A program made the translations under genes and the position numbers. From positions 1 through 61,282 of the forward strand of contig JAZDPV010000016.1 of assembly GCA_043797265.1 (NCBI GenBank): a stretch of 61,282 nt of DNA, written 5' to 3'. Under the pieces are notes generated by a model. It did not search any database, had not been told where the DNA came from, and saw only the letters and a program-made list of their open reading frames with translations. This DNA is from an archaeon (lineage in GTDB: Archaea; Nanobdellota; Nanobdellia; Pacearchaeales; GW2011-AR1). Position 1 is the first letter of the stretch, and each line of letters begins with the position of its first letter. Positions 4,243-43,630 of the stretch are shown piece by piece.

Positions 4243-4304
4243 TGAAATTTTGTCGTTGCTGTTGAGTGATTTTAGGTGGTTACAAATATAGAAATATTTA
4301 TAAG

Positions 4305-5266
4305 TGTGGGCACCCTTAATATGTTATGTATATTGAGAAGAGGAAATCTGGGAGAAGTGTAAAATATTATTTGGTTCATTCTTATCGAAACAAGGAGAAG
4401 ATAGAGAAAATAAGAAGGTATCTTGGGGTTAATCTTTCTGAGAAAGAATTATTAAGAAAAAGAGAAAAAGTTGAGAAAATAATTTTAGAGTTATTAGCGG
4501 AGATGAATACGCGGGTGTTTTTCTTTGTGTTAACAAAAAAACAAATAGAAATTTTGAATAAGTTTAGTAATAAAATTGAAGTGGTTCATTTGAGTGAAAA
4601 AGAATGGGAAAATTTTACAGAAGATTTTGTTTATAATACAAATGCTATTGAAGGTTCGACTGTGTCCGAGGAAGAAGTTGCAGAAATTCTTTGTAAGAAA
4701 AGTGCTGAAAATACCGAGGAGGTGGAAGCAAAAGGTGTTGCGATGGCGGTTGAATATATAAGAAGGACAAAGGAGGGTTTGTCGTTAAATTTATTGTTGA
4801 AATTACACAATTTTTGTTTCAAAGGTTCAAAACATTTTACGGGAAAATTCAGGGATGTTAATGTGGTTGTAAGAAATTCAAAGGGGCAAATTCTTCATGT
4901 GGGAGTTCCAAAAAAAGAGTTGAATGATTATCTTAAGGATTTTATTGAATGGTATAAAGAAAATAAAAATAAATTCAAACCCTTGGTTTTGGCTGCGATA
5001 TTACATAATCAATTTGAGCATATTCATCCGTTTCAGGACGGGAATGGGAGGGTGGGGAGATTGTTATTGAATTATATTTTATTGAAGAATAATTATCCTC
5101 CGATAAATATAGTGCTTGAAGATAGGCAGGAATATTATAAATCGTTGTATGAATATTCGAAAAGAGATGATTTGAAGCCAACTCTTAAATTGTTAATCAA
5201 GCAATATAAAAAGACACTAAAAGAGGTGTCTACAAAAAAGAATAAGAAGTGAGTTTGTGGGCACCC
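4305..5266 (+). mobile_element. Fic gene cassette bounded by 11-bp direct repeats
   Basis: TGTGGGCACCC occurs at 4305..4315 (11 nt before the ATG) and at 5256..5266 (3 nt after the stop). Confidence 0.45.
4326..5252 (+). CDS. fic: Fic/DOC family protein (AMPylase-type)
   Basis: Canonical Fic motif 'HPFQDGNGRVGRLL' (HxFx[DE]GNGRxxR). 308 aa. Confidence 0.85.
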   Translation: MYIEKRKSGRSVKYYLVHSYRNKEKIEKIRRYLGVNLSEKELLRKREKVEKIILELLAEMNTRVFFFVLTKKQIEILNKFSNKIEVVHLSEKEWENFTEDFVYNTNAIEGSTVSEEEVAEILCKKSAENTEEVEAKGVAMAVEYIRRTKEGLSLNLLLKLHNFCFKGSKHFTGKFRDVNVVVRNSKGQILHVGVPKKELNDYLKDFIEWYKENKNKFKPLVLAAILHNQFEHIHPFQDGNGRVGRLLLNYILLKNNYPPINIVLEDRQEYYKSLYEYSKRDDLKPTLKLLIKQYKKTLKEVSTKKNKK

Positions 5267-15229: not shown

Positions 15230-16357
15230 ATGGTTGGTGAAAATGATTTAGATGTTGCTTATAGAAAAGCGGTCGAGGTTTTGAAAATTTGTTCTACGAA
15301 GTATGGGTTGTTTGCGTCGGGGGGAAAGAAGGGGTATAAGGGGGTTTGGAGCCGGGATAGTTTTATTGCGATGCTCGGGGCGAGTTTGGTTGGCGGCGAG
15401 GATGGGGAGTTGATTAGAGAGACATTTAAGAGGAGTTTGGAAACGCTTGGTAAATATCAGAGCGAGCGGGGGCAGATTCCGAATGCGGTTTTGAAATTTG
15501 AGAGACGGAAGCCGCAGGTTGATTATCTTTCGATTGATTCGAGCTTGTGGTTTGTGATTGGGCATTATGTTTATCGACGGAGATATAGGGATAGTTCGTT
15601 GTTTGGGAAGTGGAAGAAGGAAATTGAGAAGGCGATTTTTTGGTTGACGTTTCAGGATATGGGCGAGGATTTGATGTTGGAGCAGTTGCCGACGACGGAT
15701 TGGCAGGACGCGTTTCCGCACAAGTATGGGAGGACGATAAATACGCAGGCGTTGTATTACAAAGTTTTGAGGTTGGTTGGGAGGAGGAGGATTGCGAGGA
15801 GGTTGAGGAAGTTAGTTAACAAGGAGGATGATGTGAATTTGTGGAACGGGAATTTTTATTGGGCGTATCGGTGGAAGAATCACAACAAGTATCGGGAGAT
15901 TGGGGAGTGGTTTGATTCGCTGGGAAATTTGCTGGCGATTGTTTTCGGGTTGGCGGATAGGAAGATGGCGAGGAAGATTGTTAGTTATATCGAGGAGAAC
16001 AGGATTGCGGAGCCGTATCCGGTTAAGGCGATTTTTCCGACGATAAAAAGGGGGAGCAAGTATTGGCAGGATTATTATATGGATTGTGCGGCGGGGAAGG
16101 CGGGGCATTATTTGAATGGTGGGATTTGGCCGTTTATCGGCGGGTTTTATGTTTTGGCGTTGGTGAAGTTGAGGAAGTTTGGAGAGGCGGAAGTTGAGTT
16201 GAGGAAGTTGGCGTCGTCGTGTCTGAGGGGAAATGTTTTTCCGGAGTGGATTGAGCCGAAGACGAAAAAGACGCACGGGGTTTATCAGGCGTGGAGTGCG
16301 GGGATGTATATTTTGGCGCATGAAAGTTTGAAGAGAAGACGGGTGCTGATATTTTGA
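15230..16357 (+). CDS. six-hairpin glycoside hydrolase (GDE_C / GH100 invertase-like)
   Basis: 'WSRDSFIAMLGA', 'LPTTDWQDAF' and 'YLNGGIWPFIGGFY', typical of (alpha/alpha)6 glucosidase/debranching-type enzymes. Confidence 0.6.
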   Translation: MVGENDLDVAYRKAVEVLKICSTKYGLFASGGKKGYKGVWSRDSFIAMLGASLVGGEDGELIRETFKRSLETLGKYQSERGQIPNAVLKFERRKPQVDYLSIDSSLWFVIGHYVYRRRYRDSSLFGKWKKEIEKAIFWLTFQDMGEDLMLEQLPTTDWQDAFPHKYGRTINTQALYYKVLRLVGRRRIARRLRKLVNKEDDVNLWNGNFYWAYRWKNHNKYREIGEWFDSLGNLLAIVFGLADRKMARKIVSYIEENRIAEPYPVKAIFPTIKRGSKYWQDYYMDCAAGKAGHYLNGGIWPFIGGFYVLALVKLRKFGEAEVELRKLASSCLRGNVFPEWIEPKTKKTHGVYQAWSAGMYILAHESLKRRRVLIF

Positions 16358-21722: not shown

Positions 21723-22345
21723 AGCCGATTGTTGTTGTGAATTTTAAGACGTATAAGCAGGGGGCTGGGGTTTTGAAGTTGGCGCGGGCAATTGAGAAAG
21801 TTGATGAGGAAATTATTGTCGGGGTGCAAGCGTGTGATGTTTTGGCGGTTTCGTCGAGGACGAATTTGAAAGTTTTTTGCCAGCATGTTGATTGGCAGAA
21901 GCCGGGGCGCGGGACCGGGTTTATTTTGCCCGAGGCGGTGAAAGCGGATGGGGCGGTTGGAGTTTTTTTGAATCATTCGGAGCATAAATTGAAATGGAGA
22001 ATTTTGAAGAGGACGGTTCGGAGATGTCGCGAGGTTGGGCTGGGTGTTTTGATTTTTGCGTCGGGGTTGAGAGAGGCCCGACGAGTCCGGAAGTTGAAGC
22101 CGGATTATTTGGTTGTTGAGCCGCCGGAGTTGGTTGGTGGAAAGGTTTCAGTTTCTTCCCGTCCTGAATTTATTTTGGATTTGTCGAGGAATCTGAAATG
22201 TGATTTTTTGGTTGGAGCCGGGATTTGTTCGAGGAGGGATGTTGTTCGGGCTTTGGAGTTGGGGGCGGTTGGCGTCGCTGTTTCTTCTGGTATCGTGAGG
22301 GCTCGCGAGCCGGGGCGAGTTTTGCGGAGGATGCTCACGAAATAA
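21719..22345 (+). CDS. tpiA: triosephosphate isomerase (short archaeal type)
   Basis: 'VVVNFKTY', 'GVFLNHSEH', 'PDYLVVEPPELVG' and 'LVGAGI'. 208 aa. Confidence 0.9.
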   Translation: MKPIVVVNFKTYKQGAGVLKLARAIEKVDEEIIVGVQACDVLAVSSRTNLKVFCQHVDWQKPGRGTGFILPEAVKADGAVGVFLNHSEHKLKWRILKRTVRRCREVGLGVLIFASGLREARRVRKLKPDYLVVEPPELVGGKVSVSSRPEFILDLSRNLKCDFLVGAGICSRRDVVRALELGAVGVAVSSGIVRAREPGRVLRRMLTK

Positions 22346-22875
22346 TTGCTCACGAATAACACGGATTGACACGAATTTTTTATTGGGGTAAATTATATGG
22401 AAGGTTTTTTATATAAGGAGTATTTGTTGGGCTGATGGAGTTTGAGGGGATTAGCGGGAAAGTTATTGAGATTTTTTATCGGGTTTATAATGGATTGGGT
22501 TATGGATTTTTGGAGAGTGTTTATGAGAGGGCGATGATGCACGAGTTTGTGAAGGAGGGGATTGAATTTGTTAATCAGTTTCCGATTAAGGTTTATTATG
22601 ACGGGGTTGTCGTCGGGAGTTTTGTTGCGGATTTTGTCGTTGAAGGGAATTTGGTGGTTGAGTTGAAAGCGGTGCGTGAGGTGTCTCAGGCAGATGAGAA
22701 TCAGTTGTTGAATTATTTGAGTTCGACAGACAAGGAAATAGGATTATTGTTGAACTTTGGTGAGAAACCGGAGATTAAACGAAAGGTTTATGATAATGTT
22801 CGGAAGAAAAATTATCGTGGTGGGCTCACGAAATAATTGCTCACGAATAAACACGGATTGACACGAATTTTTTTT
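22333..22875 (+). mobile_element. GxxExxY gene cassette flanked by ~50-bp direct repeats that include the tpiA stop region
   Basis: GCTCACGAAATAATTGCTCACGAATAACACGGATTGACACGAATTTTTT at 22333..22381 is repeated at 22824..22875 with one extra A. Both tpiA and the cassette ORF therefore end in LTK-stop. Confidence 0.7.
22435..22836 (+). CDS. GxxExxY family protein (PD-(D/E)XK-like)
   Basis: 'GYGFLESVYERAM' and 'DFVVEGNLVVELKA'. It has its own TATA (TTTTATATAA, about 20 nt upstream). Confidence 0.8.
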   Translation: MEFEGISGKVIEIFYRVYNGLGYGFLESVYERAMMHEFVKEGIEFVNQFPIKVYYDGVVVGSFVADFVVEGNLVVELKAVREVSQADENQLLNYLSSTDKEIGLLLNFGEKPEIKRKVYDNVRKKNYRGGLTK

Positions 22876-22993
22876 GGGTTGGGATAGATGAAGTATAAAG
22901 AGAATTAAAATCGAAAAATTTATAAATTTGGAATTACTACTTAGTTTAAGTTAATTAAATTTTACAAGGCCGATAAGGTATTGATTTTGTAAA

Positions 22994-34240: not shown

Positions 34241-34739
34241 TTTTGTTGAAAATTTGGATTGCGATGATTAGAATTATTAAGCCGAGGATGAGGCCGGCGA
34301 GGATGTCTGTGAGCCAATGGACTCTGAGGTAAATTCTTGAGAGAACGACGGCGAAGATGATTAGTACTGTTGCGATTTTTGTTTTGGCTGAATTGTTTTT
34401 TGTGAATATGTATATGATTAGCCCCAAAAATACGACGGACGTTGTGACGTGGCCGCTCGGGAATGAGAAGCCGGTTGCTGTGATTATTGGATTTGGCGGG
34501 CGGGCGACTTGAAGAATGTTTTTTAGTATTTCGATTATTGCGGCTGTGATTAGAATTGTTGATGCGAGGAGTATGCTTTGTTTTTTTTGGGATTTGGCTG
34601 CGAGGTAGATTGATGTTGCGATGGCGATTATGGTGAGTGTTATTGGGTCGAAGATTAGGGATATGATTTTTGCGAAGATGGTTATTGTGGGATTTTGGAT
34701 TTGTTGGATTAGGTTTAGTGTTGTTGTGTCGAGTGTCAT
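34194..34739 (-). CDS. PAP2-family phosphatase (undecaprenyl-diphosphatase-like)
   Basis: 'KNILQVARPP', 'FPSGH' and 'SRIYLRVHWLTD'. Multi-TM. Confidence 0.8.
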   Translation of the reverse strand: MTLDTTTLNLIQQIQNPTITIFAKIISLIFDPITLTIIAIATSIYLAAKSQKKQSILLASTILITAAIIEILKNILQVARPPNPIITATGFSFPSGHVTTSVVFLGLIIYIFTKNNSAKTKIATVLIIFAVVLSRIYLRVHWLTDILAGLILGLIILIIAIQIFNKIIFSKSNKPHNLSQP

Positions 34740-34789
34740 GTTTGTATTTGGATGGAATATTTTATAAAGTTTGGGTTGGTTTGATTTTC

Positions 34790-35200
34790 ATGAGAGTTGT
34801 TTTGATTTCTTGTGTGAGTAAAAAATTAGACGAAAAAGCGAAGGTTAAAGATTTGTATATTAGTTCTCTCTTTAGATATAATTTGAGATATGCTTGTTTG
34901 TTGAAACCTGATAAGATTTTTGTTCTTTCTGCGAAGTATGGGCTCGTTGGTTTAGATGAGGAGATTGAACCATATGATAAAACTTTAAATGGGATGAACA
35001 GCGTCGAGAAAAAGAAATGGGCGGATGATGTTTTTGTTCAATTAAGTAATGAGATTGATGTTGATAGGGATGAGGTGATTTTTTTGGCGGGAGAGAATTA
35101 TAGAAAATATTTAATTGAGAGAGTGAAAAATTTTAGAATTCCCCTGAAAGGATTGGGTATTGGGAGGCAGTTAAAATTTTTAAAGGAGAATGTGACATGA
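34790..35200 (+). CDS. conserved hypothetical protein (DUF6884-like)
   Basis: 'VVLISCVSKK...DLYISSLF...FVLSAKYGL...IEPYDKTL'. Stop is ATGA-overlapped with the next gene. Confidence 0.4.
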   Translation: MRVVLISCVSKKLDEKAKVKDLYISSLFRYNLRYACLLKPDKIFVLSAKYGLVGLDEEIEPYDKTLNGMNSVEKKKWADDVFVQLSNEIDVDRDEVIFLAGENYRKYLIERVKNFRIPLKGLGIGRQLKFLKENVT

Positions 35201-35853
35201 GTGAAATATGCAAAGAGTTGCATTTGATTTTTAATGAGATGAAAAGGTTTCGTTTCCCTTTTAATGAGAATAAGATTCCTTTGAATGGGATTTATGTTTT
35301 GTTTGAAAATGGAGAGGAGACGCATGGGGGAAATAGAATTGTCAGGGTCGGGACGCATACGGGAGTTAATCAATTGAGGTCGAGGATTAGACAACATTTT
35401 GTTAACGAGAATAAAGACCGAAGTATTTTCAGGAAGAATATTGGTCGGGCGTTGCTCAGTAAAAATAAGGATTTGTTTTTGGAAGATTGGGAGAAGGATT
35501 TGACGACGAGAAAGGCGAAAGAAAAATTTTCTGAGACAATTGATTTTGAGAAACGGAAGGCGGTCGAGAAACTTGTGACGGATTGTCTTAGAAAAAATTT
35601 CAGTTTTGTTGTTTTCGGGGTTGGTGATAAAGATAAGCGACTTGAATTTGAGTCGAAAATTATTTCTACGATTTCGTTGTGTGATGAATGTCGTGCTTCT
35701 AAAAATTGGCTTGGAAATTTTTCTCCGAAAACGAAGATAAGAGAGAGTGGGTTGTGGTTGGTTAATGAATTGTATAAAGATGGGTTTGATGAGGATGGTT
35801 TTAGGGAGTTTGTGAAGGAGTTGAAGTTGAGCGTATCTGATGGGAGTTTGTAA
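35197..35853 (+). CDS. GIY-YIG-like nuclease-domain protein
   Basis: 'NGIYVLFENGE...RIVRVGTH...LRSRIRQH'. The second motif is divergent (RVG in place of YIG). Confidence 0.45.
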   Translation: MSEICKELHLIFNEMKRFRFPFNENKIPLNGIYVLFENGEETHGGNRIVRVGTHTGVNQLRSRIRQHFVNENKDRSIFRKNIGRALLSKNKDLFLEDWEKDLTTRKAKEKFSETIDFEKRKAVEKLVTDCLRKNFSFVVFGVGDKDKRLEFESKIISTISLCDECRASKNWLGNFSPKTKIRESGLWLVNELYKDGFDEDGFREFVKELKLSVSDGSL

Positions 35854-35975: not shown

Positions 35976-36449
35976 ATGGTGAAGAAACTGAAGGTTGGGT
36001 TTTTTTCGTTTACGTGTTGTGAGGGGTGCGTGGTTTCGTTTTTGGAAATTTTGAATGAGAAGTTTTTTGAATGGCGGGACAAGGTTGATATTTTGTATTT
36101 GCGGGCGCTGAAAAAGGACGGGGAGATTGCGCCGATGGATGTTGCGTTTGTCGAGGGTGCGGTGTCGACGGAGAGCGAGGTCCGGAAGTTGAAGTTGATT
36201 CGAAAGAACGCGGGGAAGTTGGTCGCGATTGGGAGTGGGGCGATTAATGGATGGCCGTCGAATTTTAGGAATAATTTTAAGGGCGAGAAAAAAAAGAGGG
36301 TGGATGTTTTAGTGAAGAAGATGGGGCAGATTAAGAAAGTTTTGCCGTTGAAGGATGTCGTGAAAGTTGATGATGAGGTGCCGGGTTGCCCGATTGACGA
36401 AAAGATTTTTATCGAGAAGATGGAGAGGTTGATGGGGGGTAGGGGGTAG
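35976..36449 (+). CDS. [NiFe]-hydrogenase small subunit, short group-3 (delta-like) form
   Basis: 'FFSFTCCEGC' and 'VPGCPID'. Only 157 aa, with only proximal-cluster-type Cys residues visible. Confidence 0.75.
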   Translation: MVKKLKVGFFSFTCCEGCVVSFLEILNEKFFEWRDKVDILYLRALKKDGEIAPMDVAFVEGAVSTESEVRKLKLIRKNAGKLVAIGSGAINGWPSNFRNNFKGEKKKRVDVLVKKMGQIKKVLPLKDVVKVDDEVPGCPIDEKIFIEKMERLMGGRG

Positions 36450-36488
36450 GGGGTAGGGGGTAGATGGTAGGGGGTAGGAGGTAGGGAG
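36440..36488 (+). repeat. TAG-heptamer array x7 (TAGGGGG-type) containing the small-subunit stop codon
   Basis: TAGs at 36440, 36447 (the stop codon), 36454, 36461, 36468, 36475 and 36482. Confidence 0.9.
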
Positions 36489-36498
36489 AGGAAAAAAT

Positions 36499-37266
36499 TG
36501 GAGGAGAAAATGCATAAGTTTGATTTGGATTTGAAGAATAGTAAAATATTTAAATCTATGAATATTAATTGTATTAGCGCTTTTCGGAGCGTGAGTATAT
36601 CCCCCGGTGATCTTTTGGGGTTGCCGGATGATTTTATTTTTTTTGGAGTGTGTTTTTAATGGAAGATGTTGTGGTTTTTGTTGATGATGGTTTTTTTGGA
36701 TTGGTAAAAAAACATTTTCAAAAAGAAACTAAGAAGAGGGGTTGTTTTCTTCAGACTTTTAGAAATATTTGTAAAAATGAAAATTTAAATTTGAAACATT
36801 TATTTTTTTATACTGCGCCTCCTTATCAAAATAAAATTTCTGATAATAAAGAAGATTTTTTAAAAAAGAAATATGATCTTTTGGTAAAGATGTTGAAAAA
36901 TAAGAAGTGGATTACGGTTCGAGAGGGAAGATGCCAGCGATTGAAAATAGGTGATGAATTTAAATATTTTCAAAAGGGTGTTGATTCTTGGATAGTTGCT
37001 GATATGTGTTTAATGAAAGAAGATTTCCCGGAAGTTAAGAAAATAATTTTGATTTCTTCTGATTCAGATTTTGCTCCGATAATTAAATATCTTAAGGAAA
37101 GAAATAAGTTTGAGGTGATATTGTATACTTATTTTGATAAGAAGAGAAATAGTTGTTTTTCTCTAAGTAATTATCTTTTGCAAGCTTGTTCTAAGTGGGT
37201 TAGAATGACCAGCTCTTTTTTTAATGGAGGAGAAAATGCATAAGTTTGATTTGGATTTGAAGAATA
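36499..37266 (+). mobile_element. NYN-gene cassette with perfect 42-bp flanking direct repeats
   Basis: TGGAGGAGAAAATGCATAAGTTTGATTTGGATTTGAAGAATA occurs at 36499..36540 and 37225..37266. The repeat holds the RBS and first 10 codons of the hydrogenase large subunit. Confidence 0.8.
36659..37243 (+). CDS. NYN-domain (LabA/DUF88-like) predicted RNase
   Basis: 'VVVFVDDGFF', 'KGVDSWIVADM' and 'ILISSDSDFAPII'. The ATG is TAATG-overlapped with a 49-aa leader ORF (36510..36659) that begins at the stranded hydrogenase start. Confidence 0.75.
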   Translation: MEDVVVFVDDGFFGLVKKHFQKETKKRGCFLQTFRNICKNENLNLKHLFFYTAPPYQNKISDNKEDFLKKKYDLLVKMLKNKKWITVREGRCQRLKIGDEFKYFQKGVDSWIVADMCLMKEDFPEVKKIILISSDSDFAPIIKYLKERNKFEVILYTYFDKKRNSCFSLSNYLLQACSKWVRMTSSFFNGGENA

Positions 37267-38525
37267 TTTCGAAGATTGAGGGACACACGCACATGAGTGT
37301 GAAGGCTCGGGATGGGAAAGTTGTCGAGTGCAAGTTGAGGATTGACGAGAACAAGAGATTTTTTACCGACGCTGTTGCTGGGTTGAGTTACGACAAGGTT
37401 CCGGCGACGATGTCGCGGATTTGCGGGACGTGCAGTTCGGCGCACGTTTTGTGTTCGATTGAGGCGATTGAGAAAGGGTTTGGGGTTGAGGTTTCGGAAC
37501 AGACGAAGAGGTTGAGGAATTTACTGATTAATGCGAGTCATCTTCGGGACCACGCGATGCATTTGTATTTTTTTGTTTTGCCTGATGTGTTCGGGGTTGA
37601 TTCGGTTTTGGATTTTGGGAACAAGTTGCATGGGTGGATTCATTATGGGCTGGATGTGAAGGCGGCGGGAAATTATTTGGCGACGGTGATTGGGGGGCGA
37701 GCGGTTCATCCGCCGTTTGCTGTCGTCGGTGGATTTACGAGTTTTCCGAAGCGGGGGGAAATTAATGAGGCGATTGAAAAGCTGGGAGATGTTAGGAAGA
37801 AAATTATTATGTTGATTGATTTGCTTTACAAGAAGCGGGATGGTTGGGTTTTTAATCGGAAGACGAATTATGTCGGGTTGGTTAATGATAATTATAATTT
37901 TTTGGAGGGGAAGATTCGGACGGCGATGGGGAGCGAGATTGAGGAGCGGGATTTTGGCGAGCATCTTGAGAGGGTTGTGCTTCCGTATTCGCACGCGACG
38001 GGATTTGAGTTTGAGAGTGAGGAGTATTTGGTCGGGGCGTTGGCGAGGATGAATATTAACAAGGATAAACTGAATGAACGGACGAAGAAAGATGCCGAGA
38101 AATATTTGGGCGTTTTCCCGTCGGTGAATGTGTTTGATAATAATTTGGCGCAGGCGATTGAGATGCTGAACATTGTTGATAATTCTTTGAGGATGCTGGC
38201 GGTTCCGATTGATGAAGAGAAGATTGTGAAGGTTGTGCCGAGAGCAGCGACGGGAGTTGGGGTGATTGAGGCGCCTCGGGGAACTTTGTATTATCGGCTG
38301 GATTTTGACGAGAAGGGAATTGTGACTTTCGCGGACTTGTGCATTCCGACGCAGCAGAATATTATTCATATGGAGAATTCGATTGGGGCTTATGTTGAGT
38401 TATTGTTGAAGAAGAATTTAGATAAAGAGAAGATTGGTTTTGAAGTTGAGAAAATGATTCGGGCTTATGACCCGTGCATGAGTTGTGCGGCGCATTTTTT
38501 GGAAGTTGAGTGGGACGCCTCTTAA
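37236..38525 (+). CDS. [NiFe]-hydrogenase large subunit (group 3-like)
   Basis: N-terminal 'RICGTCSSAH' and C-terminal 'DPCMSCAAH'. Start trimmed to MHKFDLDLKN. Confidence 0.9.
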   Translation: MHKFDLDLKNISKIEGHTHMSVKARDGKVVECKLRIDENKRFFTDAVAGLSYDKVPATMSRICGTCSSAHVLCSIEAIEKGFGVEVSEQTKRLRNLLINASHLRDHAMHLYFFVLPDVFGVDSVLDFGNKLHGWIHYGLDVKAAGNYLATVIGGRAVHPPFAVVGGFTSFPKRGEINEAIEKLGDVRKKIIMLIDLLYKKRDGWVFNRKTNYVGLVNDNYNFLEGKIRTAMGSEIEERDFGEHLERVVLPYSHATGFEFESEEYLVGALARMNINKDKLNERTKKDAEKYLGVFPSVNVFDNNLAQAIEMLNIVDNSLRMLAVPIDEEKIVKVVPRAATGVGVIEAPRGTLYYRLDFDEKGIVTFADLCIPTQQNIIHMENSIGAYVELLLKKNLDKEKIGFEVEKMIRAYDPCMSCAAHFLEVEWDAS

Positions 38526-40519: not shown

Positions 40520-40628
40520 GCCCGTGTCGCATAGTGGTATTGCATACCCCTTCGGGGCACGAGAACCTGCTCATAAATTCGCAGGCAAGACTGGAAATCT
40601 TGGTCCTTCGGGACGCCCAGGTTCAATT
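40520..40628 (+). pseudogene. truncated tRNA-Ser(GGA) copy with a 41-nt insertion after the D arm
   Basis: Matches the intact gene from position 1 to the T loop. It lacks the T-stem 3' strand and acceptor 3' strand. The insert is TACCCCTTCGGGGCACGAGAACCTGCTCATAAATTCGCAGG. A further 14-nt 5' fragment lies at 40468..40481. Confidence 0.6.
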
Positions 40629-40681: not shown

Positions 40682-40762
40682 GCCCGTATCGCATAGTGGT
40701 ATTGCACAAGACTGGAAATCTTGGTCCTTCGGGACACCCAGGTTCAATTCCTGGTGCGGGCG
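40682..40762 (+). tRNA. tRNA-Ser (GGA), class II with a long variable arm
   Basis: Folds as GCCCGTA-TC-GCAT..TTGC-A-CAAGA-CTGGAAA-TCTTG-[GTCCTTCGGGACAC]-CCAGG-TTCAATT-CCTGG-TGCGGGC-G. Confidence 0.85.
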
Positions 40763-40774
40763 TATGGAGGTAAG

Positions 40775-40939
40775 ATGGATAGGGAAAATATAGAGTTGGC
40801 CAAGGAGCATATTGAGTTGGCTGGGGAATTAATTGAGAAAGAGGCGGTTGATGTCGAGGGGGAGAAGCGTGAGATTTTGAGGAAGAGTGTTTTTGACTTG
40901 GAGAAGGCCGGGGCTGAGCTTGAAGAGGGTGCGGATTAA
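40775..40939 (+). CDS. small acidic helical protein (54 aa)
   Basis: Trimmed from ORF 40721, whose 5' part overlaps the tRNA-Ser gene. Confidence 0.4.
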   Translation: MDRENIELAKEHIELAGELIEKEAVDVEGEKREILRKSVFDLEKAGAELEEGAD

Positions 40940-41048
40940 TTTAAGTTTGAATTTAGGACGCGGATGTCGGGGCTGTAGAGATTAACTTTGTCGCCTTCGT
41001 CAAGATAGAATTCTATGAATTTTTGTGGTTGTTTTTTTTCAGGATTTT
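40936..41048 (-). pseudogene. displaced, frameshifted 3'-end remnant of the XPD-like helicase gene
   Basis: 41 nt (40955..40995) are identical to 41706..41746. 40996..41048 is about 90% identical to 41796..41848. Relative to the intact gene it has a 51-nt gap and a 1-nt deletion. Confidence 0.75.
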
Positions 41049-41848
41049 GATGCTGAGAAATTTGTTAGGTCTTTGATAAATTCTGTATTTATTATTTGTG
41101 TGGATGAGGCTACTTTTTTTAGATGGTATGAAATTGATTTTTTGTTTCCAATTGCTACGTATATTATTTTTTTGTTGAGCCTGTTGATTATTGATGAGAT
41201 AACGCTTGAGAAGTCGCCGTCGTTTGATATCAGGAAAGCTTTGTCGTAATTATTGTTTATGGCGTCGAAGATTAAATCTTGTGCTATGTTTATATCTGTT
41301 GCTTTTTCTATGTAGAATGTTTTGTTGTCTTTTTTGTGTTTTTCTAATCTGCCGAATATTATTTTTAGTTTTTCTATTTTTCTTATTTTTTCGAAGAAGC
41401 GTTGTTGTTCTGCATACATTTTTGGGTTTGATTCTCCCACTGGAGAGATGTAATAATTAATTTTGACTAACTTGTATTTTTTTGCGAGTTTTTTGCAGAA
41501 TTTTTCTATGTCGATTTTTTGGTTAAAAGTTTTCTTAATGGAAAAATAAAAATTATTTCCGTCGATATATATTATCACTTTTTTCTTATCAGAATTCATA
41601 TTATAAAAAACATGGGGTTAGTTTCCTATCCCCATGGTGTTAATTAATGTTGATAATTATTTAGAGTTATTAAATCTTTCTGTTGTTGCTATTTGATTTG
41701 CGTTGAGGACGCGGATGTCGGGGCTGTAGAGATTAACTTTGTCGCCCTTGAATCGGATGCCTCTTGCGATTTTTTGATAGAGGTCTCGTCGGGCTTTGTC
41801 GAGATAGAATTCCATGAATTTTTGTGGTTGTTCTTTTTTTAGGATTTT
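40955..41848 (-). mobile_element. NYN-gene cassette flanked by duplicated helicase 3'-end sequence
   Basis: The intact helicase C-terminus (41657..41848) and the remnant (40936..41048) bracket a hairpin plus the NYN gene. Confidence 0.7.
41039..41599 (-). CDS. NYN-domain (LabA/DUF88-like) predicted RNase
   Basis: 'VIIYIDGNNFY', 'KATDINIAQDL' and 'FLISNDGDFSSVI'. Its last codons run into the duplicated helicase sequence. Confidence 0.75.
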   Translation of the reverse strand: MNSDKKKVIIYIDGNNFYFSIKKTFNQKIDIEKFCKKLAKKYKLVKINYYISPVGESNPKMYAEQQRFFEKIRKIEKLKIIFGRLEKHKKDNKTFYIEKATDINIAQDLIFDAINNNYDKAFLISNDGDFSSVISSIINRLNKKIIYVAIGNKKSISYHLKKVASSTQIINTEFIKDLTNFSASKS

Positions 41849-43630
41849 CCAGAAGAGGCCCTGGATGTTTGGGTAGGGAAATTTTGTGATGACGATTGAG
41901 TTGCATTTGTCGCCGGGGAAGTCGACGCCTCGCGCGCATTTTGTCGTGAATAAAATATCTGTTTCGCCCGATGTGAATTTGTCGACGGCGGTGTTGCCTT
42001 TTGATTGGAGCTCGCTGAGTTTTTCCTGGGTGATTAGGTTTTCGAGTTTTAGGGTTTCGTTTTCTGAATTTGTCGGGAGGTCGCTGAATGCGGAGATGTG
42101 GACGAGGGTTGGCGGTTCTGCTTTTGCCATGCACATGTCGAGGATTTTCAGGTATTGGTTTCGCGTGATTGTTCCGTCTTTGAAATTTTGGAAGGCGCAA
42201 TTTTTTTCGAGGCCGGTTCGTTGTTTGTTGATTGTGCCGGGATTTTGTGTTTCAGCCTCGATGGTTTTGAAATCTTTTAGCCCGAAGATGTCTTTGAGAA
42301 CTTGCTCGGAGTGGAGCGTGCCGGACATCATGACAAGGACGTTGTTTTGCTCGATTAGTTCTTTTAGTTTTTGGGCGAGATTGATTGAGACGATGGTGAC
42401 GAAAGTAGTTGGTAGGTGGTAGGGGGTAGAAGGTGGTTGATTGAATAATTTGTTTTGAACAGAATCTTTGTTGGTTTTTTCTATCGAGATGTAGGTTTCG
42501 TCGAGGAGGTTCTTGAAAGATTGGGCGATTTCGACGAGCGTGTTGTAGTAGTTTAGTTCTTCGTCTTCGGCGAGGTTCGGGTTTTCGATTGCGGTCTTGA
42601 TTATTTTTATAATTGGAGATTGTTTTATTTTTTGGATTTCGATTTCTTCGGAGTAAATGGCGTCGTTGATTTCGCGGATTAATTTTTTTATAATTGTCTT
42701 GTCTGTTTGTTTTTGCGGGGCGAGGTTTGAGAGCGCGGTGTGGAGCCGGTTGAGATTTATTTTGCGCTCGTTGGCGAAGGAGTCGAGGAATTCGTCGCAT
42801 TCGTCGACGATGTCGAGGTCGGTTTTTGGTTTTCGTCCGATCATTGTTTCGATTTGATATTTTGCCGAGTTGAAGATTAGGACGTCGGCGTTGGCGTAGG
42901 CTTCGCATTGGTCGTAGTAGGCGCAACCTTTTTTTCGCTGGAAGAGTGCGAATTCTTTTCCGCAAGTTGCTTCGTATTTTATTTTTTTGAAGTCGGTGAG
43001 GCCTTTTGGTTTTATGTCGGCGGGGATGAGCGGGGACCAGTAGGGGCAGGCGGGGGCGATGTTCATTCTTCTGATGTCCGACGCTGTTTTGAAATCTTCC
43101 GGACTGACCAGTGGATTTTTGTTGATGTATCCCAAAAGTTTTGCCGTGTTTTTTTCGCGGATTTCGATTGTGCAAGGGAGGTCTGGCGAATCTGCAGTTG
43201 GTAGTTGGCAGTTGGTAGTTGGTAATTCTTTTTCTGCGAATGGACATCGGAAATTATTTCGGCCTTTTATGACGGCGATGTCGAGGGGTTTTTTGTTTTG
43301 CTTGAGGATGAATTTGTTTTTAGTGTAATCTTTTTCGTATTGTTCCTGGAGGGATTTGATTGGGACGATGATTGATGTTTTTTTGAAATGGCGCGCGAGG
43401 TTGAGGGCGATTGCTGATTTGCCGGTGCCACAGACGCCCTTGATGAAAATTAATTTGTTGCCGGCGTTGATTGCGTCGAGGATTTCCTTAACGACGTCGG
43501 CCTGGGTTTTGTTATTTGAGAAAAGCAGGGGCTTGAGTTCTTCTCCTTCTGTGTCGAAGGGACCGAAGAACTTGCTGTTAGATTGTCGCTTGTCGCTTGT
43601 CGCATCTGTTCGTTTATATAATGACCACAT
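41657..43630 (-). CDS. XPD/Rad3-like (DinG family) superfamily 2 DNA helicase
   Basis: Walker A 'GVCGTGKS', 'VDECDEF', FeS-type Cys residues ('NFRCPF','LPCT','ACPYW') and C-terminal 'ARGVDFPGD'. Confidence 0.8.
   Translation of the reverse strand: MWSLYKRTDATSDKRQSNSKFFGPFDTEGEELKPLLFSNNKTQADVVKEILDAINAGNKLIFIKGVCGTGKSAIALNLARHFKKTSIIVPIKSLQEQYEKDYTKNKFILKQNKKPLDIAVIKGRNNFRCPFAEKELPTTNCQLPTADSPDLPCTIEIREKNTAKLLGYINKNPLVSPEDFKTASDIRRMNIAPACPYWSPLIPADIKPKGLTDFKKIKYEATCGKEFALFQRKKGCAYYDQCEAYANADVLIFNSAKYQIETMIGRKPKTDLDIVDECDEFLDSFANERKINLNRLHTALSNLAPQKQTDKTIIKKLIREINDAIYSEEIEIQKIKQSPIIKIIKTAIENPNLAEDEELNYYNTLVEIAQSFKNLLDETYISIEKTNKDSVQNKLFNQPPSTPYHLPTTFVTIVSINLAQKLKELIEQNNVLVMMSGTLHSEQVLKDIFGLKDFKTIEAETQNPGTINKQRTGLEKNCAFQNFKDGTITRNQYLKILDMCMAKAEPPTLVHISAFSDLPTNSENETLKLENLITQEKLSELQSKGNTAVDKFTSGETDILFTTKCARGVDFPGDKCNSIVITKFPYPNIQGLFWKILKKEQPQKFMEFYLDKARRDLYQKIARGIRFKGDKVNLYSPDIRVLNANQIATTERFNNSK
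42406..42436 (+). repeat. heptamer array (TAGNNGG x4), antisense to and in frame within the helicase gene
   Basis: TAGTTGG TAGGTGG TAGGGGG TAGAAGG on the + strand. Encodes PPSTPYHLPTT on the - strand. Confidence 0.85.
43195..43225 (+). repeat. heptamer array (YAGTTGG x4), antisense to and in frame within the helicase gene
   Basis: CAGTTGG TAGTTGG CAGTTGG TAGTTGG. Encodes LPTTNCQLPTA on the - strand. Confidence 0.9.

Follow-up and report, generated by a model that had tools for sequence, protein, structure and literature searches.

An NYN-domain gene cassette inserted with a 42-bp target duplication in the [NiFe]-hydrogenase operon of a DPANN archaeon

An NYN gene between the hydrogenase subunit genes

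The window, by which we mean the whole 61,282-nucleotide stretch of archaeal DNA analyzed here (GenBank contig JAZDPV010000016.1), contains a [NiFe]-hydrogenase operon in which an AT-rich cassette with an NYN-domain gene lies between the small- and large-subunit genes. All parts of this locus are on the forward strand. The small subunit (Oxidored_q6, Pfam E value of 4e-18) is encoded at 35976-36449. The large subunit (NiFeSe_Hases, Pfam E value of 2.3e-31), which is intact with 429 amino acids and is 86-87% identical to its nearest relatives over its full length, is encoded at 37236-38525. The cassette (36541-37224, 684 bp) is bounded by the 42-mer TGGAGGAGAAAATGCATAAGTTTGATTTGGATTTGAAGAATA, which has exactly two occurrences, at 36499-36540 and 37225-37266, separated by 726 bp. 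Each copy holds the Shine-Dalgarno (SD) sequence GGAGG, an ATG and codons 1-10 of the large subunit; the right copy is the functional start of the gene (ATG at 37236), and the left copy is a stranded duplicate of it (ATG at 36510). The insertion point is located 31 nt (ten codons) into the large-subunit gene. None of 100 shuffled sequences yielded a second occurrence of the 42-mer, even when three mismatches were allowed. The GC content of the insert is 0.22-0.32, and that of the hydrogenase genes is 0.45-0.52. A preliminary description of this DNA had reported the exact repeat, its ribosome-binding site and ten codons, and the AT-rich NYN gene between the copies, and all of these coordinates hold.

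The ATG of the left copy opens a leader open reading frame (ORF) of 49 amino acids (36510-36659), and its TAA (36657-36659) overlaps the ATG of the NYN gene (36659-36661) in the form TAATG. The NYN gene (36659-37243) encodes 194 amino acids and is preceded by GGAG 10 nt upstream of its start. Its last six codons and stop are supplied by the duplicated host segment, and the stop (37241-37243) lies 5 nt inside the large-subunit ORF, within ATGCATAA. These positions are also those given in the preliminary description.

The product of this gene is a predicted Mg-dependent endoribonuclease, with a score of 37.4 bits for Pfam NYN (PF01936) against a curated cut-off of 24.2. Its AlphaFold2 model (pLDDT of 90.9) has a PIN-like alpha/beta fold, and the best Foldseek matches are 2qip (LabA-like, E value of 4e-9) and the NYN domain of MARF1 (E value of 5e-7). 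The sequence identity to solved structures is 12-16%. Residues D9, D109, D135 and D137 are invariant in an alignment of 18 homologues, and both the fold and these conserved acidic residues match those of NYN/LabA-like ribonucleases, which suggests that the protein acts as an RNase. A weak hidden Markov model (HMM) match to the candidate defense system HEC-09 of PADLOC was also observed (E value of 0.002, 15.8 bits). The 669 homologues of the window NYN protein are all in DPANN-type assemblies, and the gene occurs one to three times per genome, which is not multi-copy. No NYN relative was found on viral contigs; a virus or plasmid donor is therefore not supported.

Relatives retrieved via the large subunit are Woesearchaeota and Nanoarchaeota metagenome-assembled genomes (MAGs). 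For the ancestral overlap of the small-subunit stop with the large-subunit start, relatives read ..GGGATTTTTGAATGCATAAG. In L003 (one of the compared loci, which we designate with L numbers), whose large subunit has 75% amino acid identity to that of the window, and in L096, a metagenome contig with about 80% nucleotide identity (79-82%), the site is empty and the small-subunit stop overlaps the ATG of the large subunit (..TTGAATGCAT..). The closest relative, the sister MAG CAYXTT (L001, 87% amino acid identity), likewise has no NYN gene at the hydrogenase, nor do L094 and L095, which come from two independent metagenomes and group with L001. The sister MAG has its own NYN homologue on a different contig, upstream of an RFC gene (L119). 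The empty sites of L003 and L096 indicate that the cassette is an insertion, as had been proposed from the window alone, and a lineage-specific one, and the 42-mers on both sides are the accompanying duplication of its target. Exact look-ups of the small subunit, the NYN protein and the large subunit (with two start choices) found none of them on record, and no empty site of the same strain was found.

The hydrogenase junction bears the mark of an older event as well. In L001 (3378-3711), L094 and L095, at least three copies of the large-subunit start are arranged with a 124-bp tandem unit, which consists of a 49-nt start and a 73-nt C-rich spacer, and each stranded ORF terminates on the TAA of the following ATGCATAA. 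The contigs break, or hold a 100-N gap, within this array. The 73-nt spacer shows no similarity to the ends of the NYN cassette. The L001 spacer has at its 3′ end the same 11 nt that precede the ATG in the 42-mer, together with a few bases that lie further upstream of the left copy in the window. These nucleotides therefore predate the NYN insertion, and the NYN event accordingly looks like a simple target duplication. In the window, the place of the ancestral overlap between the small-subunit stop and the large-subunit start is occupied by a scar (36434-36498) composed of a (GGGGGTA)n tandem repeat (36434-36486, at and after the small-subunit end) and GGGAGAGGAAAAAAT, and the small subunit ends in ..EKMERLMGGRG* rather than in the ..EKMEGFLNA* of its relatives (L001 and L003 were compared). 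Because the nucleotides matching the spacer end are shared with L001, the junction had already been remodeled in the common ancestor. The older event persists in the window as the (GGGGGTA)n scar and the altered small-subunit C-terminus, the NYN cassette entered later with a plain 42-bp duplication, and the large-subunit start has been a target more than once.

A conserved leader with two RNA hairpins

We compared the leaders of about 50 unique NYN loci from Woese-, Pace- and Nanoarchaeota. A TATA-like motif, two hairpins and the NYN gene are found together in all of them, in the order AAAGTTTATAAA, about 20 nt, hairpin 1, GTGAGTATGATCC, hairpin 2, GATG, a T-rich stretch, GGAGG and the NYN start. 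In the window, the first motif has the form AAATATTTAAAT (36543-36555) and forms the left end of the cassette, 24-28 nt upstream of hairpin 1, where it also codes for K-I-F-K. It resembles a TATA box, and host promoters in the window have TTTTATAAA 22-24 nt before the ATG, suggesting that the motif may serve as a promoter within the cassette. Hairpin 1 (GCGCTT TTCG GAGCGT, 36577-36592) has compensatory changes in six of its six pairs across 28 loci. Hairpin 2 (CCGGTGATC-loop-GGTTGCCGG, 36604-36627) has nine pairs with conserved G.U wobbles, 99.6% of cells being paired, and occurs in the variants CCGG/CCGG, CCAG/CTGG, CTGG/CCAG and CTAG/CTAG. When both hairpins were evaluated with RNAalifold, nine of the 15 pairs showed compensatory changes and 99.8% of cells were paired. 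This level of covariation was not reached by any of 500 shuffles, and slid registers did not come close to it either. The conserved wobble pairs favor an RNA structure over a DNA structure. A search of 36400-37300 with the Rfam 15 covariance models gave nothing near a gathering score (best 19 bits, E value of at least 1).

In 45 of 48 loci, no stop codon interrupts the leader frame between hairpin 2 and the NYN start, which is so in 25 and 0 loci for the two remaining frames, and the frame is kept open although the spacing varies. The ORF usually terminates at the NYN start, with TAATG in 16 loci and slightly further on, by a few codons, in most of the rest. Three loci of the close subfamily, and a distant subfamily as well, have the leader ORF joined in frame to NYN, to which it adds an N-terminal extension that reads M..K[VI]YK..MLPGDLKGLPDESFF.., and the window leader peptide (..KIFK..SPGDLLGLPDDFIFF..) matches this extension. 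This conservation and the match to the fused extension indicate that the leader ORF belongs to the NYN module. The preliminary description had attributed the leader to the stranded host start. This is correct for the first ten codons, which are the only host-derived ones and are in frame with the 5′-truncated leader of the cassette; the native leader start (often MTNQK.YK) is missing in the window, and the rest of the ORF is the conserved cassette leader with its two hairpins.

Another NYN subfamily is preceded by a second conserved hairpin motif, AGTCCCCGGTATG..(loop)..ATGCCGGGCTTCC, which is found in L053 (1090-1130), upstream of the NYN leader in L056 and L097, in L058 and L088, and in L008 (about 4300-4340, reverse strand), at times in tandem with the two-hairpin leader. 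In L129, a run of N (2432-2490) lies exactly over the expected NYN leader hairpins and may represent masked sequence or an assembly gap.

Flanking duplications at other loci

A search for other NYN genes flanked by duplications of a neighboring gene end, as suggested in the preliminary description, located such genes at no fewer than nine of 49 loci and a further one in the window itself. At 49 complete loci, the DNA upstream of the leader was compared with the DNA just past the NYN stop, and cross-locus pairs served as the control. Nine loci exceeded the 99th percentile of the controls (control rate of 1%). Besides the window with its exact 42 bp of the hydrogenase large-subunit start, these are L066 (36 bp exact, start of a 545-aa protein), L124 (131 bp with 126 identical, 31 codons of a signal-peptide protein), L119 (108 bp with 89 identical, RFC start), L125 (72 + 38 bp, 3′ end of the upstream gene and five codons), L117 (38 bp, downstream gene start), L053 (about 42 bp, glycosyltransferase start), L129 (61 bp, downstream host gene start) and L064 (18 bp, host ATG and first codons). 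A self-BLAST survey added L150 (102 bp with 95% identity, reaching 35 codons into cysteinyl-tRNA synthetase, CysRS), L122 (59 bp), L170 (70 bp), L176 (40 bp), L186 (52 bp) and L193 (128 bp). The targets are at least ten different genes or sequences, including those of hydrogenase, CysRS, RFC and glycosyltransferases, a helicase 3′ end and intergenic DNA. Most duplications hold the host start codon, and some are gene 3′ ends or intergenic DNA. They measure from 18 to more than 130 bp and are from 100% to about 80% identical, a spread that suggests events of different ages. A decayed orthologous duplication considered for L048, which has the same RFC context as L119, was not significant (score of 13; shuffle mean of 10.8 and maximum of 19).

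The preliminary description had likened the cassette to integrative elements that bring along a replacement copy of their target. A comparison with such elements, whose target is fixed, does not stand, as the duplicated segment differs per locus, with 18-131 bp and more, and no integrase is present. With differing targets, a variable length and no integrase, a duplication made by the insertion itself is a better fit than an attachment site brought in by the element.

On its left side, the insert begins 2 to more than 100 nt upstream of the TATA-like motif, and on its right side it ends 0-14 codons past the ..DFE motif conserved at the C-terminus of NYN; whatever sequence follows the insert provides the tail and stop of NYN. 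In every recent case, the NYN stop falls within a few nt of the host ATG, and in L150 the intact host gene starts at an ATG that comes from the end of the cassette. Of the start-proximal cases, seven are recent (the window, L066, L053, L124, L117, L125 and L150; at least 88% identical copies), and in each of these the stranded host start shares the reading frame of the leader ORF, for which the chance expectation is about 5e-4. In four older start-proximal duplications, the stranded start is out of frame with the leader. The earlier idea that the insert borrows a host start and hands translation back to the host gene thus finds comparative support at the sequence level, from the open leader frame, the in-frame starts and the NYN stops near the host ATG, and translation is probably coupled from the leader through NYN to the large subunit.

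The second NYN cassette of the window belongs to a different subfamily (41039-41599, reverse strand; Pfam NYN E value of 1.2e-20, 75 bits). Directly past its stop lies a stranded, decaying copy of a helicase 3′ end (40939-41048, reverse strand), which is 91% identical to 41691-41848 in two blocks with a 48-nt deletion. The latter segment is the intact 3′ end (last ~150 nt) of a 657-aa helicase gene on the same strand (41657-43630) and the source of the duplication. A 7-bp hairpin (CATGGGG..CCCCATG) is located just upstream of the second NYN start.

In a background of 485 kb of hydrogenase-centered sequence plus the window, we found seven repeat-insert-repeat structures outside repetitive proteins. 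Three of the seven contain NYN genes, and one of these, in L008, is beside a hydrogenase small subunit. Repeats are arranged in this way around NT+HEPN pairs, a VapBC-like pair, DUF3800 and a PD-(D/E)XK gene as well. The MAG PFCY01 (L129 640-4132, and L193) has arrays of four to five cassettes, each of which follows a copy of about 90-130 nt of a GT4-like glycosyltransferase-gene start. The cargo of these arrays comprises two NYN subfamilies, DUF3800 and a 155-aa protein starting with MKEFDYYIFIDYSEN, which has no Pfam match. L193 is a contig of 3306 bp with identical 72-nt ends and is either circular or a collapsed array.

Several other features of the window were recorded. A PD-(D/E)XK (PDDEXK_3) gene (22417-22833) is flanked by a 56-bp direct repeat (96%; region 22333-22878); CACGGATTGACACGAATTTTT in this repeat recurs in several intergenic regions of the window, with related sequences near 16349 and 19532. 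A 43-nt partial copy (98%) of tRNA-Ser(GGA) (40682-40762) is located 121 nt upstream, at 40586-40628, and looks like an old attachment-site or duplication scar. Downstream of the hydrogenase large subunit, the HycI maturation protease gene is on the opposite strand. Between a PAP2-like membrane protein gene and the hydrogenase operon (34670-35853), a DUF6884 gene is followed by the gene of a 218-aa protein, and the two match the PADLOC candidate defense pair PDC-M57A/B (HMM E values of 7e-57 and 3e-95). At this position, L003 is empty and L001 has two other small ORFs. The GC skew is +0.44 across all 61 kb and +0.27 to +0.56 in each 4-kb block, and T exceeds A too, regardless of the coding strand. 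L001, L095, L096, L119 and L124 have the same strand asymmetry, which is missing in the more distant L003, L005 and L008.

Possible routes of insertion and their meaning

We consider it likely that a small, self-contained NYN cassette was inserted with a long, variable target duplication, and that only gene-preserving, in-frame events have persisted. The cassette would comprise, in order, the TATA-like motif, a leader ORF running through the two RNA hairpins, an SD sequence and an NYN gene abutting the next start. A copy without the leader's own first codons would have entered the large-subunit gene and duplicated its SD sequence, ATG and ten codons. The downstream 42-bp copy would then keep the large subunit intact, and the upstream copy would give the leader ORF its ribosome-binding site and start codon. 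Ribosomes from the stranded start may traverse the hairpins and stop on the TAATG at the NYN start, and NYN translation would in turn end 5 nt inside the large-subunit ORF. By such serial translation, the cassette would behave like one more gene of the operon, with little polar effect. In compact genomes, only insertions that rebuild an intact neighbor would persist, and 5′-truncated cassettes would do so only if in frame, so that persistence appears to be a matter of selection.

Rae1/YacP of Bacillus is an NYN-type RNase. Rae1 cuts mRNA inside short ORFs only during their translation (PMC10351889). It may be regarded as an attractive analogue for an NYN gene behind a conserved, translated leader ORF. 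By this analogy, the NYN protein could regulate itself by cutting its own leader, and a possible benefit behind the persistence of the cassette would be that NYN acts as an addictive or defense-type gene regulated in this way.

Several observations weigh against the favored explanation. The insert encodes only the leader peptide and NYN, with no transposase, tyrosine or serine recombinase or other insertion enzyme, and the window cassette has no terminal inverted repeats, its ends not being conserved between loci. The final ~30 nt of the NYN ORF are present in both repeat copies of L124 and, more weakly, of L053 and L119; one insertion into a naive site would not produce this, and an older NYN scar or another mechanism is needed. 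The TATA-like motif is coding sequence where the leader is fused to NYN, which makes its role as a promoter uncertain. The nearest NYN homologue is just 66% identical, so that no donor is known. A given NYN protein is always in the same context across samples, and ongoing mobility within populations is thus not seen.

Two candidate features of the cassette ends were rejected. A fixed crossover core, TTTATAA, is not supported, as the host junction sequences do not share the motif. Terminal direct repeats were considered from the resemblance of AAAGTTTATAAA to the right motif AAAGATTTTGAA, which are too short and AT-rich for significance.

The NYN tails shared by the two copies would suit a generalized form of the earlier idea, a cassette that carries a copy of its target: homologous recombination between the repeats frees a circle of the cassette and one copy, and a single crossover takes it into any chromosome with the same gene start, which restores the arrangement of repeat, cassette and repeat with no dedicated recombinase. 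The tail in both L124 copies (weakly in L053 and L119) appears as if the unit had been defined after joining, and each PFCY01 array (L129 and L193) holds four to five different cassettes, every one of them behind its own copy of the same host gene start. The identical 72-nt ends of L193 could belong to a circle, and the foreign ATG given by the right end of the L150 cassette indicates that cassettes carry flanking DNA. We nevertheless regard this route, the main alternative, as unlikely. It leaves unexplained the first duplication at each new host gene (at least ten genes), and the array repeats are 73-86% alike, so that they have not been homogenized by frequent recombination. The non-ancestral 11 nt in the 42-mer of the window are an older shared scar and not cassette DNA, 42 bp is short for efficient homologous recombination, and no filled/empty polymorphism was found within a population.

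Tandem copies of gene starts also exist without a cassette, for example in L053 (two copies with a 46-nt period) and in the 124-bp start array of L001, L094 and L095, and the partial tRNA-Ser copy at 40586-40628 is comparable. They would be expected if slippage first produced a tandem duplication of the gene start and the cassette came later by illegitimate recombination, duplicating nothing. However, in every recent case the two copies that directly adjoin the cassette are both complete and share their end points, whereas a later random hit would usually split a copy or leave extra target. A single event needs fewer assumptions, and we give little credence to the two-step order. A simple tandem duplication of the cassette together with the host start was rejected, as it predicts two NYN copies, which are never seen.

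The duplications are far longer and more variable than is usual for insertion sequences (IS), and the earlier statement that the locus is not what ordinary IS transposition leaves is in line with the lack of a transposase and of inverted repeats. To our knowledge, the sole precedent for such duplications is provided by IS1549/IS1634, elements with a transposase. Variable direct repeats of 8-514 bp have been described for them (PMC2266710). The NYN cassette shares with these elements the long, variable target duplications made at insertion, for which no mechanistic model exists in either case; the large DDE transposase and the terminal inverted repeats of IS1549/IS1634 are both missing from the NYN cassette. 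It is highly improbable that the cassette is a non-autonomous element moved in trans, either by an IS1634-type DDE transposase or by target-primed reverse transcription of its mRNA. The long and variable duplications, a left end that varies and a right end that is fairly constant would fit such movement, and the IS1634 family, mostly reported in Euryarchaeota, has long variable repeats (PMC2266710). On the other hand, terminal inverted repeats and conserved termini are lacking, no transposase or reverse transcriptase was seen beside any cassette, though none was searched for, and the NYN gene is present one to three times per genome and on no viral contig. An assembly artefact, in which strain variants were mis-threaded or a small circle was threaded into the chromosome path, is very unlikely: the de Bruijn graph of this locus would be no different if a free 726-bp circle existed beside an empty chromosome, but both junctions must exist in real molecules, many independent assemblies of other species share the architecture, and copies that are just 80-85% identical (L119, L193 and L170) cannot come from mis-threading.

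The cassettes resemble known mobile systems in part. Islands specific for tRNA genes or dusA are kilobases long and use a tyrosine integrase with a fixed attP for one conserved target. They are likewise flanked by a gene-end direct repeat that keeps the interrupted gene intact, whereas the NYN cassette is 0.7 kb long and has no integrase, and its target and repeat length differ per locus. Free-standing homing-nuclease genes of phages are copied into the same site of a homologous genome ('intronless homing') with no duplication. They are similar in being single small nuclease genes that are wedged at conserved genes with overlapping starts and stops and are patchy among relatives; however, NYN has an RNase fold, and DNA cleavage is not indicated.

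Integron cassettes and CALIN arrays have been reported in Archaea, including Nanoarchaeota (PMC9668308). They too are small, mostly one-gene units without their own recombinase, form arrays at one site (as in L129, L193 and L053), carry toxin, nuclease or defense cargo (here NYN, NT+HEPN, VapBC-like and DUF3800) and are expressed in line with the flanking transcription unit. In contrast to integrons, the repeats here are local host gene ends and not a cassette-specific site, and insertion occurs inside coding sequence with duplication. No attC-like inverted repeat is present at 36541 or 37224. As single-stranded DNA, the repeat units of the L129 and L193 arrays fold no better than shuffles on either strand (z of -0.1 to -1.2), and an attC/integron interpretation of the arrays was rejected, because their repeat units are 5′ parts of the GT4-like host gene and have no hairpin fold. 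No IntI or attI was noticed among the ORFs of these loci, which lie on short contigs and were not searched systematically. We know of no description of NYN families as mobile cassettes, and PMC5499597 mentions none. Literature searches on NYN cassettes and on start-duplicating insertions in DPANN found no published description.

More tentatively, the insertions could represent an undescribed DPANN route of gene gain, by which leader-carrying cassettes adapted to this route enter at gene boundaries and copy tens to more than 100 bp of their target without a transposase, integrase or attC. Its cargo would include NYN RNases, NT+HEPN pairs, DUF3800 and others. The hairpin-bearing leader ORF would capture the stranded host start codon, and the NYN 3′ end would give the restored host gene its SD sequence and sometimes its ATG. 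Through repeated hits, integron-like arrays may grow at the 5′ side of a host gene, and the NYN nuclease itself, or an unusual mode of replication in this clade (GC skew of +0.44), may drive the duplication.

The window locus is a clean and recent example of a recurrent, apparently undescribed cassette architecture of DPANN archaea. If the favored explanation is true, it shows how very compact archaeal genomes, in which genes overlap and safe sites are few, gain selfish or defense-type genes while essential operons remain unbroken: the gene end that was interrupted is restored by the insertion itself, and translation runs serially through cassette and host gene. The signature of repeat, cassette and repeat is easily searched and could map recent gene gain in uncultivated archaea. 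The locus also offers three leads, namely a new, conserved and strongly covarying RNA element that precedes the genes of a widespread NYN ribonuclease family, the possibility that this RNase regulates itself in a translation-dependent manner, and long, variable target duplications as a class with no known enzyme.

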